Part shown: in pieces, positions 277 through 56,700 of the stretch
How the letters are laid out: the number at the start of each line of letters is the position of its first letter
Numbering within the stretch: the first letter of the stretch is position 1
Source: a phage
Length of the DNA stretch: 56,700 bases
Sequence record: PZ544694.1
Strand: one strand, 5' to 3'
Made by a program: the position numbers and the translations under genes
The notes under the pieces: generated by a model
Seen by the model: the letters and a program-made list of their open reading frames with translations, nothing else
Told to the model about the DNA's origin: nothing
Databases searched by the model: none

Positions 277-1401
277 ATGAAATCAATCAAGGAACTTGTC
301 GCGAGAAGTGCGAACAATCCCCCGGAGGTTAAAGCACAAGGCGGTTATGAGGGTGCTCAGCGAAACTCGCGAGAAATGTATCGCTGGACGCCCGCAATAG
401 TCTCTCCGGATCAGGAATTAGACGGCGGACAAAAAGAATTAGCCGATGCCCGGGTTCAAAACGTTATCCAGAATGACGGTTTTGCGTCCGGTGCCGTATC
501 GATACATCGAGATAATATCGTCGGCTCTCAATACATGCTAAACGCTAAGCCGAATTTGTCCGCGCTAGGACTAAAAGGAGCTGACGCCGAAGCATGGGAG
601 GAGGAGTTTCAAGACGTCGTAGAGTCGAAATTCAACGTGGCTGCGGACTCAACGGAAAACTGGTTTGATGTCACACGACGCAATTCTTTTACCGGCTTGG
701 TTCGCCTCGCGGTGGCCCAAGCACTGATTTCCGGTGAAGTATTGGCATCGGCAGAATGGTCAAGAACCGCAGGTCGTCCTTTCAATACGGCCATTCAAAT
801 GATTAGCCCGCATCGACTGAGCAACCCGAATAACTCGGCCAACACGAAAAACATTCGAGGCGGTGTTCATGTCGATGCGTTCGGACGACCAATCGGGTAC
901 TACATTCAAAACAGTTTCCCGGGAGAGAGTTTAATCAACGGTGAGAATCAAATGTGGCGATATGTTCCATCACGCAAACCGTGGGGACGTCGACAGGTTA
1001 TTCACATCATGGAGCAAATTCTCCCGCACCAAAATCGCGGTATCTCAGACATGGTTGCAGCATTGAAGACCATTAGAATGACTAAGAACTTTCAGGAGAT
1101 AACGCTACAAAACGCGGTAATCAATGCCTCGTATGCAGCCGCAATTGAGTCGGAGCTACCACCGGAAGCCGTTTACGCTCAGTTAGGTTTAGGGCAACGT
1201 CCGTTCGGCGAGATTATCCATGAGATGATGACGAACGCAGCATCGTACTACGCGACTGCTAAAAACATGGAAATAGACGGCGCCAAGATCCCGCATTTAA
1301 TGCCCGGCACTAAGTTGAACTTAAAACCGATGGGGACTCCCGGCGGGATCGGCACGGACTTTGAGGAGTCGTTACTACGCCACATCGCAGCATCGTTATA
1401 A
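277..1401 (+). CDS. portal protein, lambda gpB family (N-terminal ~70 percent only)
   Basis: 374 aa colinear with lambda gpB: SIHRDNIVGS, MISPHRLSNPNN, INASYAAAIESEL, AKIPHLMPG, FEESLLRHIAASL; ends with TAA where homologs continue. Confidence 0.85.
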   Translation: MKSIKELVARSANNPPEVKAQGGYEGAQRNSREMYRWTPAIVSPDQELDGGQKELADARVQNVIQNDGFASGAVSIHRDNIVGSQYMLNAKPNLSALGLKGADAEAWEEEFQDVVESKFNVAADSTENWFDVTRRNSFTGLVRLAVAQALISGEVLASAEWSRTAGRPFNTAIQMISPHRLSNPNNSANTKNIRGGVHVDAFGRPIGYYIQNSFPGESLINGENQMWRYVPSRKPWGRRQVIHIMEQILPHQNRGISDMVAALKTIRMTKNFQEITLQNAVINASYAAAIESELPPEAVYAQLGLGQRPFGEIIHEMMTNAASYYATAKNMEIDGAKIPHLMPGTKLNLKPMGTPGGIGTDFEESLLRHIAASL

Positions 1402-10938: not shown

Positions 10939-13614
10939 ATGTCTAACGTTTTCAAATCTCGTGGCCCTGAACTTTTCGACAATGGATACGAAGTCGTACC
11001 TATTACTCGTATCGACGCAACTGACAGCAAAGGGAAATTATTGTCTGGCGCGGGTAAAGCCCCGGCGTTAAAAGGGTGGCAGAAAATAGAGATCACTTCT
11101 GACATCGTTAATGAATGGGCGACGGGTAGTCGCTCTCGCTGTGGTGTGGGTATTCGTACCCACCGTAACCCTGCTGTCGATATCGACTGTTTAGACGCCG
11201 AAGCGTCAGAACACATGACGGCTTTCGTTGAGTCGGAAGTGGGCTTTGCTCCTATCCGTGTTGGGCGTGAACCTAAAGCGCTACTCCTCTATTATACAGA
11301 ACGTCCTTTCACAAAAGTAAAATCAACCATCTTCGTTGATGAAAACGGGAATGAAAACGCTGTCGAGATATTAGGAAGCGGGCAACAATTCGTTGCTTAC
11401 GGTATCCACCCGGGAACTAAGAAACCGTATAAATGGGTTACTAAAGGCGAGTCGCCTGCGGAAAACCAAGCGGATTTTGACCTTGAAGAAATCACACTAG
11501 AAGACGCGAGAAAAATTATTGCGGAATTCGACCGGTATGCGAAAGAGCGCGGTTGGAAACCTTTAAAAAGTAAAAGCGGTACGGTCATCAAGCCATCTTT
11601 GGGCTACTACTTAGATGCTCCGGAAGAACTATCAGACTGGTCGGACGAGTCGGACTTTGACGATGATGAAGACGATTGGGTCACTACTGATGATATCACC
11701 GATAAATGGGACGGTACTTACGAAGAACTTTACGAAATCTTCGAAAATGATATCGAACCATCTTACGATTACCACACTTGGATTCCTGTTCTGGCTGCAC
11801 TTAAAGACGCCGAACGTGAGCCGGACGAGTTTAAAGAGATCGCGAGAATGTGGTCTGCTCGGGCCGAGGAGTCTTTCGATAACGATGCCTTTGAAGATAA
11901 ATGGGAAAACGGTAATTTCAATCGTGTTGGTAAATACGCTAAGACATTACGAGGAGTAATTGCCGAAGCGGAAAAGATCCAAGGCGTTCGCGAAATTGAG
12001 GACGTAGTTATACCTTTATTCGAAAAAGCTACTGACTTGGCCGAGTGGACTTTAGCTGCCGACCGCCTACGTGAAACGTGGGCTTTCGGTTTAGAAAGAG
12101 AGACGGCCATAAACATTGCTTGCGAAAAGTATAAGAAAGTCACTAACGGGTTAAAACTTACGGACGTTCAAAAGAAACGATATCTTAGTATCGATTACTC
12201 TCTCTTTGACGCTCCCGAATGGTTGGCTCCTTGGGTTTATTGTACTACGGATAACGAGTTTATTAACTTAGACAATAGAACCAGAATGAACCCTAAATCT
12301 TTCGCGAATGCCTATAACCGAGAAACTGTGAAGAAATTCGGGGTAGCTGCGGACGTTTTCGCCACGGTTGAAAGACCCGTTCCTGTTATCCACGATACGA
12401 TGTATTACCCGTTGATGCACGGTGAGATGCCTAAGAACAAATGGAAGCGGGTTCCGGGTATTAATGACAAGCGTGTTTTCGAATACAACGGTTTGACGTT
12501 CTTAAATACCTTTGACCATCGTTCCATGCCTGAGACCGCAACAAAAATTTCGACCGCTGGATATAAGGCGATCGGGGAGGTAAAACGATACTTCGAAATA
12601 CAGTATCCAGATCCAGACGAACGAAGACATGCGATGGACTGGATCGCGTGGGTTATCAATAATCCTGTTAGAAAGATTAACTATATGCTTCTCGTTCTTG
12701 GTGGTCAGGGTTCCGGTAAAACCATCGTTAAGAAGTTTATGGAACACATGCTCGGCTCTGATAACGTCTCTACGATTTCGAATAAGGTTATCCATGGTAA
12801 TTTTACCGGGTGGCAGTCTGGTCACATGCTCAAAGTTATTGAGGAAATATCGGTGAGTGGTCATCGCTACGACGTTATGAACTCATTGAAAGAGCCGATA
12901 TCGAATGAAACGTTACAGATCGAAGCGAAGTACCGTGACCCACGCCAGTGTGTGAATACTTCGTCGTATATGGCATTTACCAATGATGTTGGTGCTTTGC
13001 CTCTTACATCAAGTGACCGTCGCTTCTTGTTAGTTCGTAGTGCGTTCCAGCACAAGCGTGAAGTCACTGAATACCTACGGAAAGACCCTAATTACTTTAA
13101 ACGGTTTGAGAAAGCCTTTACTAAACACGCACCGGAGATCCGCAAATGGTTTAGCGAGTGGGAGTATTCCGAGGGCTTCAAACACGATGGTAACGCTCCT
13201 GAAACGGTGAGTATGGGAAGCATGTCTTTAGCGTCAGAAGACGATTTCACCTCCGTAGTAATGGGGGCCGTAGATGATTGTGAGAAAGAGTTAGAATTTA
13301 CATCGGGGATCACAGACGAAGTAATTTTCATTCCATCGGCAGTAGATTTAGTCCGAGATAGGTCTAAGGTTCCTAACGGGAAAATAATATATCGCATACT
13401 CGCTGAATATGGTTTCTTCCGGCCTGTGGATTCTCGTACACAAATAAGATTTAATGACGTAAGAGGACAAGTTGTTGTCGCGAATAGACATAAATGGCTC
13501 TATCCTGATGGGAGTGTCAACGTAGATAAGATTAAAGAGCATTTAGAGGAGAACGAACGCCGGGTAGAAGAACAAGAAAGCAAGAGAGAGTTAGAAGAAA
13601 CTGACGTTTTCTAA
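10939..13614 (+). CDS. DNA primase-polymerase / SF3 helicase (PrimPol N-terminus, D5/P4-type helicase C-terminus)
   Basis: 891 aa; N-terminal GYEVVPI...GKAPALKGWQ PrimPol-like; Walker A LVLGGQGSGKT, Walker B-like region further C-terminal. Confidence 0.7.
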   Translation: MSNVFKSRGPELFDNGYEVVPITRIDATDSKGKLLSGAGKAPALKGWQKIEITSDIVNEWATGSRSRCGVGIRTHRNPAVDIDCLDAEASEHMTAFVESEVGFAPIRVGREPKALLLYYTERPFTKVKSTIFVDENGNENAVEILGSGQQFVAYGIHPGTKKPYKWVTKGESPAENQADFDLEEITLEDARKIIAEFDRYAKERGWKPLKSKSGTVIKPSLGYYLDAPEELSDWSDESDFDDDEDDWVTTDDITDKWDGTYEELYEIFENDIEPSYDYHTWIPVLAALKDAEREPDEFKEIARMWSARAEESFDNDAFEDKWENGNFNRVGKYAKTLRGVIAEAEKIQGVREIEDVVIPLFEKATDLAEWTLAADRLRETWAFGLERETAINIACEKYKKVTNGLKLTDVQKKRYLSIDYSLFDAPEWLAPWVYCTTDNEFINLDNRTRMNPKSFANAYNRETVKKFGVAADVFATVERPVPVIHDTMYYPLMHGEMPKNKWKRVPGINDKRVFEYNGLTFLNTFDHRSMPETATKISTAGYKAIGEVKRYFEIQYPDPDERRHAMDWIAWVINNPVRKINYMLLVLGGQGSGKTIVKKFMEHMLGSDNVSTISNKVIHGNFTGWQSGHMLKVIEEISVSGHRYDVMNSLKEPISNETLQIEAKYRDPRQCVNTSSYMAFTNDVGALPLTSSDRRFLLVRSAFQHKREVTEYLRKDPNYFKRFEKAFTKHAPEIRKWFSEWEYSEGFKHDGNAPETVSMGSMSLASEDDFTSVVMGAVDDCEKELEFTSGITDEVIFIPSAVDLVRDRSKVPNGKIIYRILAEYGFFRPVDSRTQIRFNDVRGQVVVANRHKWLYPDGSVNVDKIKEHLEENERRVEEQESKRELEETDVF

Positions 13615-14030
13615 ATGCACGTTTGGTCAAAAAATGAGCGTACAAAATTTATACAGAAAAACGTTCAATATTTAACCGATTTTCGGGTGATCGGATTTTT
13701 TGAGTGAGTGAATTTCCAATTTTTCATTTTTCCATTTTTTGGTCGAAAAACACCGAAAATGCTGTACAAATTTTATACAGGGTTTTTTGACACAAAGTGT
13801 GTCGGTCATGTGTTCCGACGTGTGCGTGCCAGTTAAATGTTGTACAAAAATCACCCAACACACATGATCGAATTACCTTTATATAGCTTATATATATATT
13901 TTTCTATTTTTCCTTTCCTATCTATTTTTTCTTTCTTCTGGAATTTCTATTTTATTATCTATTACTGTGTTTGCTGTGTCAGAAAGAAAGTAATATAGTT
14001 GCTGTGTCAGAAAGAAAGTAATATAGTAAA
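13615..14030. promoter_or_regulatory. AT-rich repeat-containing region, candidate origin or regulatory region
   Basis: Three copies of AATG-nn-GTACAAA-type motif at 13633-13656, 13757-13780, 13834-13853; T-tracts; 28-bp tandem repeat at 13972-14027; only very short ORFs. Confidence 0.35.
13972..14027. repeat. perfect 28-bp tandem direct repeat x2 (TGCTGTGTCAGAAAGAAAGTAATATAGT)
   Basis: Read directly: copy 1 at 13972-13999, copy 2 at 14000-14027. Confidence 0.9.
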
Positions 14031-14333
14031 AACAATAACTTACCTTGGAACACCTATTGGAACATCAGCCGGCACAGCAATTTCCTGTGACACACCACCA
14101 GCCATGGTAATACCTAAAACGGCGCATAACTATTTGATATTATTACGGAATTACCTAAAATACCGGTCATTACGGTAAATGATGTCCCCTATTGCTAAAG
14201 CCTGTGCGTCGCTCTCCGTGCTTTCTAGAGAAGAATCACTTTTAAATCGAAAAAGGTACTTGGACGAGTTGTCCGGTTGGGCGGGGGTGCGCAGAGCCGT
14301 CTTCCAGAAATTTGTCCGGGATCTGCCATAGAT

Positions 14334-14624
14334 GTTTGGGTGTTCGGGTGGGCGGTGTTGTGGGTTAGATGTGCTTCAAATTGTAAGCGTGTGCGATTGT
14401 GCGAGGCGATCGCGGTGTTAGTTGTCGGTCGTATCCGTTGAGCGGGGGTATAGCGCCTCGGGTGAACACGCCGATCGGGAACGTCGTTTTTACGTTTTGT
14501 GCGGGTGTTCGGGTGTGCGGTTGTACCGCATGACGTTTTTACAAATATAAATGCGGTCGCGCCAGCGCCTACCCACCCAACACCACCACCCCAAGCCCTC
14601 ACTCTCCCCCATTCCCCCCCACCC
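14334..14624. repeat. G-rich imperfect direct repeats followed by a C-rich tract
   Basis: GGGTGTTCGGGTG-type motif at 14334-14366 and 14494-14528; C-rich tract about 14566-14624 (CCCACCCAACACCACCACCCC...). Confidence 0.6.
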
Positions 14625-14766
14625 TATGGAAAATTGCCGTAAAGCCATGTGTTGCGTCCTCAGCGTGTTTTGCCCGCTAGGTAAGGCCGATGTATTACCT
14701 ACGATGAGTTATGCCCGTGTGGTTCGATTGAGGGCGGAAGACGGCGCTTTGTTTGTTCCGACTTAA

Positions 14767-15006
14767 ATGAGCATTCTCAAGATGCTACTCTCCGGTGTGT
14801 ACAACGTGGGCGCCGTGTGTTTCTTCGGCCTAATTTCGATTTATATTCTCTCGTTCTTTTTCCGCGCCCTACAAAACCACGGTTTCGACGGTCTACACCG
14901 CACTACGTTAGTTCTCGAATCAATCGGCGCTATCATGATGGTCGTCTTCATGGTTTGCGTTGCGATCTTGGTGTTCGCCGGAGGCGTCGCCCTAACAATC
15001 CGGTAG
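14767..15006 (+). CDS. small hydrophobic membrane protein, hypothetical
   Basis: 79 aa, two or three predicted TM helices (VCFFGLISIYILSFFF; IMMVVFMVCVAILVFAGGVAL). Confidence 0.4.
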   Translation: MSILKMLLSGVYNVGAVCFFGLISIYILSFFFRALQNHGFDGLHRTTLVLESIGAIMMVVFMVCVAILVFAGGVALTIR

Positions 15007-15585
15007 ATGAGTTGTAACTGTTTCGATCGTATTCAAAAATCGATGGCTGATCGGGTGGCCGGTAAGTTGCCGAACGGCGCAATAATACACTCGGCGGAGT
15101 GGAAAACAGAAGTGTTAGCTATTGAAAATAAAAAGTTGAAAACCCGATATTTTCTAGACTTCACCATAGAGTATCAAGAGCGTAGACCGGACGGGACGCT
15201 CTACTCGACGGTAACAAAATCTGATTTTCCTGTGTTTATGAATTATTGCCCGTTCTGTGGCGTAAAGTTCGAGGAGGACGAACAAACTCAGGATCAGGAA
15301 GACCGTTTTAAATTCCCTGCGCTAGTCTACGTCAAAAATGGAAAAGACCCCATCGCACACACGGGGGCAACGTTACAACGAAGTGGGACAGAACACCCTC
15401 GCGGAATGTTTGCGGAGTACGTGAACGTGCGAACCAATGAGCGGATTTACTTTTCTGAGTCGTTGATGTCCTCCCGCCTAGACGGTGGCGATTACGTCGA
15501 GATCCCCGACGACTGGGAACAACTCAGCGACTATTGCCAGAAAGACATAATCGCAGAACGAAAAGCACGAGGCGGTCGAAAATGA
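15007..15585 (+). CDS. hypothetical protein with Cys pairs (CNC...CPFC)
   Basis: 192 aa frame-1 ORF; possible zinc-ribbon cysteines. Confidence 0.45.
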   Translation: MSCNCFDRIQKSMADRVAGKLPNGAIIHSAEWKTEVLAIENKKLKTRYFLDFTIEYQERRPDGTLYSTVTKSDFPVFMNYCPFCGVKFEEDEQTQDQEDRFKFPALVYVKNGKDPIAHTGATLQRSGTEHPRGMFAEYVNVRTNERIYFSESLMSSRLDGGDYVEIPDDWEQLSDYCQKDIIAERKARGGRK

Positions 15586-56181: not shown

Positions 56182-56700
56182 ATGAACCTTTCATACGAAC
56201 AGTTTAGCCGAGACTACACGAAGACTAACTATTCTTCCGCGAGAGCCTCAATGGGGGAAACATGGAAATTCATGCAGTCTCGCAAAAAGATCATTGCTGA
56301 TGCTTTCGCTACAAACATTTATGCGTTGTGGTTAGAGGAGATGATAAACAAAAACGAAATCCCGTTGCCACGAGGAAAAACGAGCGACTGGTTTTACGAA
56401 CCGTTAGTGAAAGACTGTTTAATTCGTTGCGACTGGATAGGTGCAGCCCGCGGTCAAATCGACGAGAAGAAAGAGACCGAAGCAGCTATCATGAGAATTA
56501 ACAGTGGTCTGAGCACTCGTGAGAAAGAAATCGCTCGACTCGGCGAAGACTGGAGAGAGATTTTTAGGCAGTTAGAACGAGAAAAACGAATAAAAGATAA
56601 ATACGGGCTTGTTTTCTCCGGAGATGTGAGTAATATATCCGCTAACGAGAAAACAAACTCGGAAGATGACGAAGAAACTAACAGTGGGGATTCGGAATGA
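56182..56700 (+). CDS. portal protein, lambda gpB family (C-terminal ~30 percent only)
   Basis: 172 aa; NLSYEQFSRDY...YSSARAS...WLEEMI...CDWIGAARGQID...INSGLSTREKE colinear with the lambda gpB C-terminal third; continues ORF 277-1401 with no residues missing; ends with TGA at the last window base. Confidence 0.8.
   Translation: MNLSYEQFSRDYTKTNYSSARASMGETWKFMQSRKKIIADAFATNIYALWLEEMINKNEIPLPRGKTSDWFYEPLVKDCLIRCDWIGAARGQIDEKKETEAAIMRINSGLSTREKEIARLGEDWREIFRQLEREKRIKDKYGLVFSGDVSNISANEKTNSEDDEETNSGDSE

Follow-up and report, generated by a model that had tools for sequence, protein, structure and literature searches.

Concatenated gene calls over the non-coding cohesive-end region of Escherichia phage E21, with conserved octamer arrays in the natural sequence

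The G-rich and C-rich stretch analysed here (14225-14640) is a construction product laid over genuine non-coding phage DNA. The window, that is, the whole 56,700-nucleotide stretch of DNA under analysis (PZ544694.1), is not a stretch of genome: gene calls from Escherichia phage E21 have been joined head to tail into a synthetic sequence. The four small open reading frame (ORF) calls that the region spans (50, 29, 42 and 71 aa) are spurious; the DNA beneath them is the right end of the phage chromosome, which is non-coding. Taken as a whole and including its inferred parts, the explanation of the region as concatenated E21 calls over right-end cos DNA has, in our estimation, a probability of about 85%. 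The locus itself is already known as the cos region of a published phage, and the pattern that drew attention to it is an artefact of construction. We infer that the region acts as DNA, rather than as protein or structured RNA. Coordinates given below are window positions unless assigned to E21, and all features lie on the plus strand of the window unless stated.

The evidence for concatenation comes from the window at its full length. Its 56,700 bases amount to 18,900 codons and are tiled from base 1 by 85 abutting start-to-stop ORFs, all in frame +1, with an ATG, GTG or TTG directly after the preceding stop in every one of the 85. Stop codons number 85 in this frame versus 559-1406 in the other five; the natural E21 genome has about 940 per frame. 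Exact substrings of E21 (MN604053; Lavrentievavirus, Casjensviridae) account for 83 of the ORFs, in ascending genome order, 54 of them taken from the E21 minus strand and flipped singly and 29 from the plus strand. The two ORFs that are not exact come from the portal gene, which the record origin cuts in two; one half carries an extra TAA and the other an extra ATG, both absent from E21. Compared with E21 across the genome, overlapping calls have their overlap written twice and separated calls have lost the spacer between them. Together, the abutment in a single frame, the added start and stop codons, the duplicated overlaps and the missing spacers establish that the window is a synthetic concatenation.

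The opposite view, that natural rearrangement of a genuine phage genome produced the window, its segments being truly inverted, has next to no probability. Its sole support is the existence of the sequence, and it would have to accommodate 85 of 85 ORFs abutting exactly in one frame, a split portal gene with added start and stop codons, and the doubling of overlaps and removal of spacers genome-wide. The BLAST results take the same shape. The matches of the window are to Chi-like phages of Proteus, Escherichia and Salmonella, on the 'wrong' strand, and its blocks match E21 at 99-100% identity in an order that is reversed relative to their orientation. The natural E21 sequence, used as the query, finds 28 phage records in a single piece, and the window version breaks into four to five pieces in most of these records. 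A mosaic breakpoint near 14178, which the window BLAST had suggested, was dropped after the concatenation had been recognised.

Immediately before the region under study, the AT-rich block at 13615..14178 corresponds to left-end non-coding DNA of E21 (13830-14391) in its natural orientation. It has been cut into spurious calls of 30, 42, 53 and 59 aa, with a 30-nt spacer dropped and overlaps of 4 nt and 28 nt doubled, and in the alignment with E21 the differences are confined to ORF boundaries. The duplicated GTGA at 13704-13711 is one such call overlap written twice. A perfect 28-nt tandem 'direct repeat' at 13971..14026 consists of two overlapping calls (gap -28); as a natural repeat it was rejected, E21 having a single copy.

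The practical point therefore concerns the data. In this window, and presumably in others similarly built, adjacency, orientation, spacing, intergenic sequence, direct repeats at ORF boundaries and steps in composition are not to be trusted.

The four pieces under the region derive from one strand of E21 (the minus strand of the record), within a non-coding region of about 1.4 kb around the cohesive-end site. Because minus-strand calls were each flipped separately, the order of the four is reversed in the window, and spacers of 14-74 nt have been lost, among them the one with the intrinsic terminator behind the last right-arm gene. The conserved cos core lies in the 50-aa call (14179..14331; reverse complement of E21 14465-14617), at whose junction with the preceding AT-rich block 73 nt of natural spacer are missing. 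The 29-aa call (14332..14421; reverse complement of E21 14618-14707) follows it in the window and naturally lies immediately upstream of it. Next come the 42-aa call, with a TTG start (14422..14550; reverse complement of E21 14728-14856), and the 71-aa call (14551..14766; reverse complement of E21 14871-15086), naturally the most upstream of the four and placed directly behind the terminator of the last right-arm gene.

In the natural order, the stop of the last right-arm gene, of 79 aa, is followed by a terminator hairpin (GGCCTCGCATTCGTGCGGGGCTTTT), which the window lacks, and then by the C-rich tract. Some 230 nt separate this tract from octamer run 2, octamer run 1 comes next, and a further 165 nt or so lead up to cosN (GGTGCGCAGAGC). 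Once the ends have joined, cosN is succeeded by the AT-rich block and a second terminator, beyond which lies the primase-helicase gene, 3' end first. This gene (10939..13614; 891 aa; Prim-Pol, PriCT-2 and SF3-type DUF5906 domains) naturally converges on the cos region. On first view, the region had appeared as an intergenic gap of 1.15 kb behind the 891-aa primase gene.

Restoring this order changes how the composition is to be read. The preliminary description had reported an abrupt change from the AT-rich region into G-rich repeats and then a C-rich tract. The step, at 14178/14179, is a construction junction, the AT-rich block belonging naturally on the other side of cosN and in opposite orientation. 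The succession of repeats and tract is likewise artificial: in E21 the C tract precedes the repeats by about 230 nt on the same strand, and 74 nt, not the 165 of the window, separate the start of one octamer repeat from the start of the other. The suggestion that adjacent pieces had been joined in opposite orientations holds, as a matter of construction, for the AT-rich and G-rich blocks; it fails for the G motifs and the C tract, which share one natural strand, so that neither is an inverted copy of the other. The sequence features themselves were located correctly. A first G-motif, GGGTGTTCGGGTGGGCGGT, stands at 14338-14356, and a second, GGGTGTTCGGGTGTGCGGT, identical to it at 18 of 19 positions, at 14503-14521; the surrounding sequence (14225-14565) is G+T-rich, with 35% G, 29% T and 18% C.

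The landmark of the region is an exact match to the 12-nt 5' cohesive end GGTGCGCAGAGC at 14286..14297 (E21 14510..14499). This 12-mer is the overhang determined for phage Chi, and it has been confirmed or predicted for Siskin and for Proteus Chi-like phages, in the latter from reads (PMC4342425, PMC9022528, PMC6498227). Those Proteus phages are 90-96% identical to E21 over the right-end region. In line with this, the Saba record starts and the Phraden record ends exactly at window position 14297, the DoubleBarrel, DanisaurMW, Jing313 and NotEvenPhaged records also end at the cosN 12-mer, and many IMG/VR contigs with a homologue of the primase stop, a few hundred bases downstream of it, at a 12-mer resembling cosN. 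Conservation of DNA across genera, as seen by BLAST, is limited to about 100 bp around cosN, a core common to Chivirus, Kokobelvirus, Cenphatecvirus and Lavrentievavirus. By sequence identity, then, 14286-14297 is the cohesive-end site of Chi-like phages. The arrangement agrees as well, with the exact 12-mer flanked on one side by the left arm, which carries the primase gene, and on the other by a long right end that is non-coding, and with the terminase genes some 10 kb away. The motifs and the tract studied here differ from cosN itself in being flank, 165-560 bp inside the right end, and this flank is genus-specific, with octamers in E21 and 19-22-mers in Chi. A literature search on cos-flanking repeats or origins in Chi-like and Lavrentievavirus phages found nothing.

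Real small genes, either the 50-, 29-, 42- and 71-aa ORFs or an ORF of 125 aa on the opposite strand, are most improbable here. Gene callers did predict such genes in the source annotation of the window, similar ORFs are annotated in the SD-12_S18 and P2-71 records, and the 29-aa and 50-aa frames are open in most relatives. Against this, frame conservation across an alignment of 11 Lavrentievavirus right ends (E21 and ten relatives) breaks down for two of the four: the 71-aa ORF is frameshifted or stopped in all ten relatives, and the 42-aa ORF is broken in six (premature stops in five, a frameshift in one), which bears out, for the two longest, the doubt already cast on these Pro/His/Arg-rich ORFs. 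The 50-aa ORF spans cosN and is consequently cut in virion DNA, and the 125-aa minus-strand ORF (14225-14602) crosses three artificial junctions, which makes it impossible in nature. Seven of the ten related records have no annotated gene starting in this stretch. Homologous proteins, which the preliminary description had named as the observation that would speak for real genes, did not appear: neither PHROG nor Pfam yielded a family for any of the four ORFs or for the 125-aa ORF. In Chi-like phages, permissive gene calling evidently fills the non-coding cos region with small ORFs that are false.

What the natural sequence does contain is a pair of octamer arrays. The G-motifs are tandem runs of octamers (TGTNCGGG) in strict 8-nt register. 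Run 1 (14333..14364) consists of TGTTTGGG, TGTTCGGG, TGGGCGGT and GTTGTGGG and lies naturally at -196 to -165 from cosN; an extra upstream unit, TGTTTCGA, falls mostly in a dropped spacer and brings the full run to -204 to -165. Run 2 (14498..14529) consists of TGTGCGGG, TGTTCGGG, TGTGCGGT and TGTACCGC, naturally at -270 to -239, and its 3' half forms a small hairpin with a T run that a scan scored as terminator-like. A degenerate copy (TGTCCGGT, TGGGCGGG, GGTGCGCA) abuts cosN. Each octamer run is preceded by an element of the form GGATCGGGA...TTTTT; the GATCGGGAACGTCGTTTTTA element at 14473..14492 does not vary among the ten relatives whose sequence is complete at this point, and a near-identical copy of it stands just past the primase terminator in E21, in a spacer dropped from the window.

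The octamer arrays are real, beyond chance and constrained. In the natural sequence the extended 24-mers of the two motifs match at 21 of 24 positions, a value reached by none of 200 dinucleotide shuffles of the whole right end and by none of 300 shuffles of the GT-rich part alone. Within the 58.5-kb genome, three of the six sites for TGTKCGGG and three of the four tandem pairs are found here. Kokobel1 (Kokobelvirus) and Saba (Cenphatecvirus) have the same register and the same distance from cosN, with matches of 19/20 and 17/20, respectively (0/300 shuffles in each case), and keep the register although their flanks outside the cos core are too diverged for BLAST. Absence of the motifs from related phages had been named as a result that would count against them; they are in fact conserved in the Lavrentievavirus relatives as well as in Kokobel1 and Saba. 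All three octamer-bearing phages infect Morganellaceae and are closely related to one another, so that shared ancestry could explain part of this conservation. A literature search found no description of the octamer arrays.

Register and position are thus shared by Lavrentievavirus, Kokobelvirus and Cenphatecvirus, and lineage-specific arrays replace the octamers in Chivirus and in metagenomic relatives. Chi and Phraden have four copies of TGATATACGCGGCGTGCGT instead; among the metagenomic relatives, GGGGTGC is repeated in L032 and L038, and CCTGGTTA occurs more than 12 times in L042. Every lineage examined has some repeat array within the last 100-450 bp of its right end. The right-end strand is 61-66% G+T in seven of nine lineages, L042 and L044 being without skew.

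Most plausibly, the octamer runs would be binding sites for a phage DNA-binding protein. The use to which we would tentatively assign them, at clearly less than even odds, is that of iteron-like sites of a replication origin. Under this preferred reading, the octamers would become contiguous with the AT-rich left end and the primase-helicase gene only after circularisation through cos. The arrays have the form of iterons, with runs of four to five in-register octamers, in two clusters, significant in three genera. Among the four proteins compared between E21 and Chi, the primase-helicase is the most diverged (40% identity, the others 54-62%), and its last 90 aa are its most diverged part (24%). 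The best-conserved part of the small terminase subunit TerS is, on the contrary, its N-terminal half (66-74% identity), which is probably the DNA-binding part. The conservation of that half between phages whose arrays differ, together with the divergence of the primase C-terminus, favours a replication protein over TerS as the partner of the arrays. It is more doubtful that the octamers represent a new cis-acting element of the Casjensviridae, for example origin iterons assembled only by the joining of cos and read by the fast-evolving C-terminus of the primase-helicase. Counting against the origin-iteron reading, L038 and L042 have fairly similar primase C-termini and different repeat motifs. 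The degenerate octamer copy at cosN is of a kind that would suit a role in packaging. There is also a second candidate for the origin, stronger-looking than the octamers: the AT-rich block across cosN carries TGACACA repeats in a pattern conserved across lineages, and after circularisation the two would be contiguous.

Sequence similarity did not connect the C-terminus of the primase-helicase with a solved origin-binding domain. A phmmer search of the whole protein against solved structures matched it, in the helicase core, only to the NrS-1-type primase-helicase; a 39-sequence profile of the C-terminal 175 aa gave nothing meaningful in the PDB, and a single-sequence AlphaFold model, at a pLDDT of 42, was too poor to use.

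A packaging function, in which the arrays would be accessory terminase sites, binding sites like cosB, or a termination element of the cosQ kind that the translocating motor would reach just ahead of the terminal cosN, is unlikely, although several observations point in that direction. The arrays are no more than 270 bp from cosN, a spacing conserved in three genera; one degenerate motif copy sits directly against the nick site, the large terminase is of the lambda gpA type, and some repeat array is found in the last 100-450 bp of every lineage examined. Against it, the arrays of E21 and Chi are unrelated in spite of the 66-74% identity of their TerS N-terminal halves, the shared cos core of about 100 bp is the likelier target of terminase, and the repeats that E21 offers as candidates on the cosB side are two copies of GGTAATWCCTAAAA. 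In phage lambda, cosB is a set of terminase-binding repeats situated between cosN and the terminase genes, at the end that is packaged first. E21 resembles lambda in its gpA-type large terminase, its 12-nt 5' overhangs and the presence of short repeats near the nick site; it departs from the lambda model in that its arrays are on the opposite, right-end side of cosN, with terS and terL about 10 kb into the left arm, and in that the repeat sequence does not co-vary with the probable DNA-binding half of TerS between E21 and Chi. Much less likely still is that the GT-rich strand with its 3' end at the right end signals recombination or end protection, either as a Chi-like site for RecBCD or as a sequence preferred for RecA loading. 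In the lambda model the right end is the first to enter the cell. The G+T content of 61-66% on the right-end strand in seven of nine lineages would fit such a signal, and the orientation would suit the reading of Chi by RecBCD entering at the right end. The octamers nevertheless differ from E. coli Chi (GCTGGTGG), the repeats are lineage-specific with no obvious host specificity, and the skew is missing from L042 and L044. What probability remains falls to sites for some other regulator or to no specific function.

The closest parallel to the iteron-like reading is satellite phage P4, whose alpha primase-helicase binds, through its C-terminal domain, the octamers (TGTTCACC) that make up the type I iterons of ori and crr. 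E21 has, similarly, direct octamer clusters beginning with TGTTC, two such clusters separated from each other, and a neighbouring gene for a multidomain primase with an SF3-type helicase. It differs in that its primase domain is Prim-Pol and not of the P4 type, and in that the C-terminal 175 aa of its primase are without match to solved structures, including the P4 alpha domain if this is in the copy of the PDB searched. Mapped origins or terminase-binding sites in the Casjensviridae are apparently absent from the literature. The octamer arrays are in this regard reasonable candidates for binding and deletion work, of modest, specialist interest.

The other component of the pattern, the C-rich, G-poor tract, occupies 14566..14624, as first described, and has 66% C and 3% G over 59 nt, including a poly-C run of variable length. 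Its supposed resemblance to the reverse complement of the G motifs dissolves into base composition. The duplex of the tract with motif 1 has a predicted RNA energy of -40.2 kcal/mol compared with a mean of -36.8 (sd 3.9) for composition-matched shuffles, and 100 of 500 shuffles do as well; for motif 2, 190 of 500 are equal or better. The best Watson-Crick 20-mer between tract and motifs has 14 matches, where shuffles average 13.9.

Two further proposals concern the tract and the repeats. A structured RNA had been among the first suggestions; a non-coding RNA in which the C tract pairs with the G-rich repeats is most improbable. The minimum-energy fold of the natural plus strand does pair the tract with motif 1, and the hairpin of motif 2 stays paired through the changes seen in relatives (T-A to G-T and G-C to G-T). 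Fold energies, however, match those of shuffled sequences (z = +0.26 on one natural strand and +0.03 on the other, with -0.18 for the sequence as arranged in the window), the strength of the tract-motif duplexes is what composition predicts, and the length of the poly-C run is free to vary. An Rfam scan of the window and the natural sequence gave best scores of 12-21 bits versus thresholds of 37-80, no family coming within 20 bits of its threshold, and a sigma-70 promoter scan of the natural region found 3 sites where 2.6 are expected, so that promoter-like sites upstream on that strand are at chance level. Scarcely more probable is G-quadruplex or i-motif DNA, formed by the C tract and motif 1, that would regulate replication, transcription or packaging near the chromosome end. 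The description of the DNA as quadruplex-prone stands insofar as pattern matches are present, namely one canonical G3N1-7 x4 pattern at L001 3362-3390, on the strand complementary to the C tract, and one long-loop pattern, with a 9-nt loop, in motif 1 (L001 3702-3728). Pattern matches are the whole of the evidence, and nothing points to a quadruplex function: the C run ranges in length between 6 and 13 and has been lost from SD-12_S18, motif 2 has just two G3 runs, and Kokobel1 and Saba retain the 8-nt register but not the G3 runs.

A different role for the tract is suggested by its position, beginning 90 nt past the stop of the 79-aa gene and behind the hairpin terminator. It may form part of a stop zone behind the late operon, a stretch of the Rho-loading type that would back up the hairpin, a possibility that we rate as tentative at best. 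Like rut sites, it is an untranslated stretch with C in excess of G downstream of a gene, a likeness of composition only, and the constraint would be on composition rather than sequence, since the length of the poly-C run varies; unlike a typical rut site, it is short. Across the 11 aligned Lavrentievavirus right ends the run is 6 to 13 long, with the deletion in SD-12_S18, and Saba has a CA-rich, G-poor stretch at the same place.

Intergenic DNA is absent from the window throughout its length (1-56700), 85 of 85 ORFs adjoining one another in frame +1. As a consequence, the promoters, terminators, cos spacers and similar elements that Escherichia phage E21 actually carries are missing or scrambled window-wide, and other findings drawn from the same window require the same construction check. 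Traces of this assembly are seen at several joints. The origin of the circular E21 record falls within the portal gene and divides it into two ORFs in the window (277-1401 and 56182-56700), with a TAA stop added to one half (1399-1401) and an ATG start to the other (56182-56184); E21 lacks both additions, which are deliberate edits by the builder of the sequence. Additionally, a perfect 28-nt tandem duplication (13971-14026) and a duplication of GTGA (13704-13711) each correspond to a single copy in E21; both arose from overlaps between ORF calls, the shared bases being written out once with each call.

The same concatenation, by removing the spacers, deprived the window of the terminators of the 79-aa gene and of the primase-helicase gene. 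In the natural E21 sequence across the cos region (L001), these genes close two convergent transcription units, each followed by a clear hairpin and T-run terminator (L001 3243-3316 and 4575-4652).

One copy of the element GATCGGGA(A/G)CGTCGTTTTT lies on either side of the cos and AT-rich region, in direct orientation and 980 nt apart; the first is found at window 14473-14492, and the other (L001 4575-4599) was dropped from the window. Between them lies a third copy, GATCGGGAGGGCGGG (L001 3996-4010). GATCGGGA occurs seven times in E21 versus about 1.6 expected, and copies of GCGGATCGGGA precede the G-rich octamer runs in Kokobel1 (Kokobelvirus) and Saba (Cenphatecvirus).

The AT-rich left-end block (window 13615-14178, E21 13830-14391) contains TGACACA/TGTGTCA repeats around TATAAATA-like stretches. 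Among the left ends of loci L021-L032, the same AT-rich repeat pattern, with lineage-specific repeat sequences, is present in Kokobel1, in Chi (Chivirus; GTTACAAGTTACA) and in L023, L031 and L032. The block's role may be that of an origin or of an early promoter-operator region.

Dozens of metagenomic viral contigs of 55-67 kb from IMG/VR (loci L023-L062) have variants of the cosN 12-mer as their termini, reading toward the end, for instance, GCTCAGCGCACC and GCTCTGCGCCCC. The primase homologues on these contigs are distant (25-50% identity), indicating that both the cos type and its primase-adjacent position reach well beyond the named genera.

Among the 11 Lavrentievavirus right ends aligned (A1), three nucleotides (GGT) are missing at the left edge of cosN in SD-12_S18, ASh-2020a and pPM_01 (columns 738-740; window ~14284-14286). 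The cos is internal in these records, and the absence probably reflects faulty assembly across the joined ends, not genuine variation. Within columns 52-147, a 39-nt insertion follows the terminator in P2-71 and pPM_01, and NotEvenPhaged has CCACGCGGTCGCGCCAGCGCC duplicated in part, with Ns in the duplication. The 20-mer CCATGCGGTCGCGCCAGCGC, upstream of the C-rich tract (window 14566-14624), is kept in Saba as well, with flanks that are not conserved.

Three records bear host labels that look doubtful: Staphylococcus phage SVV09-A, Enterococcus phage AS-M1_NWU and Pseudomonas phage E21 all share 92-94% identity with Proteus Lavrentievavirus DNA.
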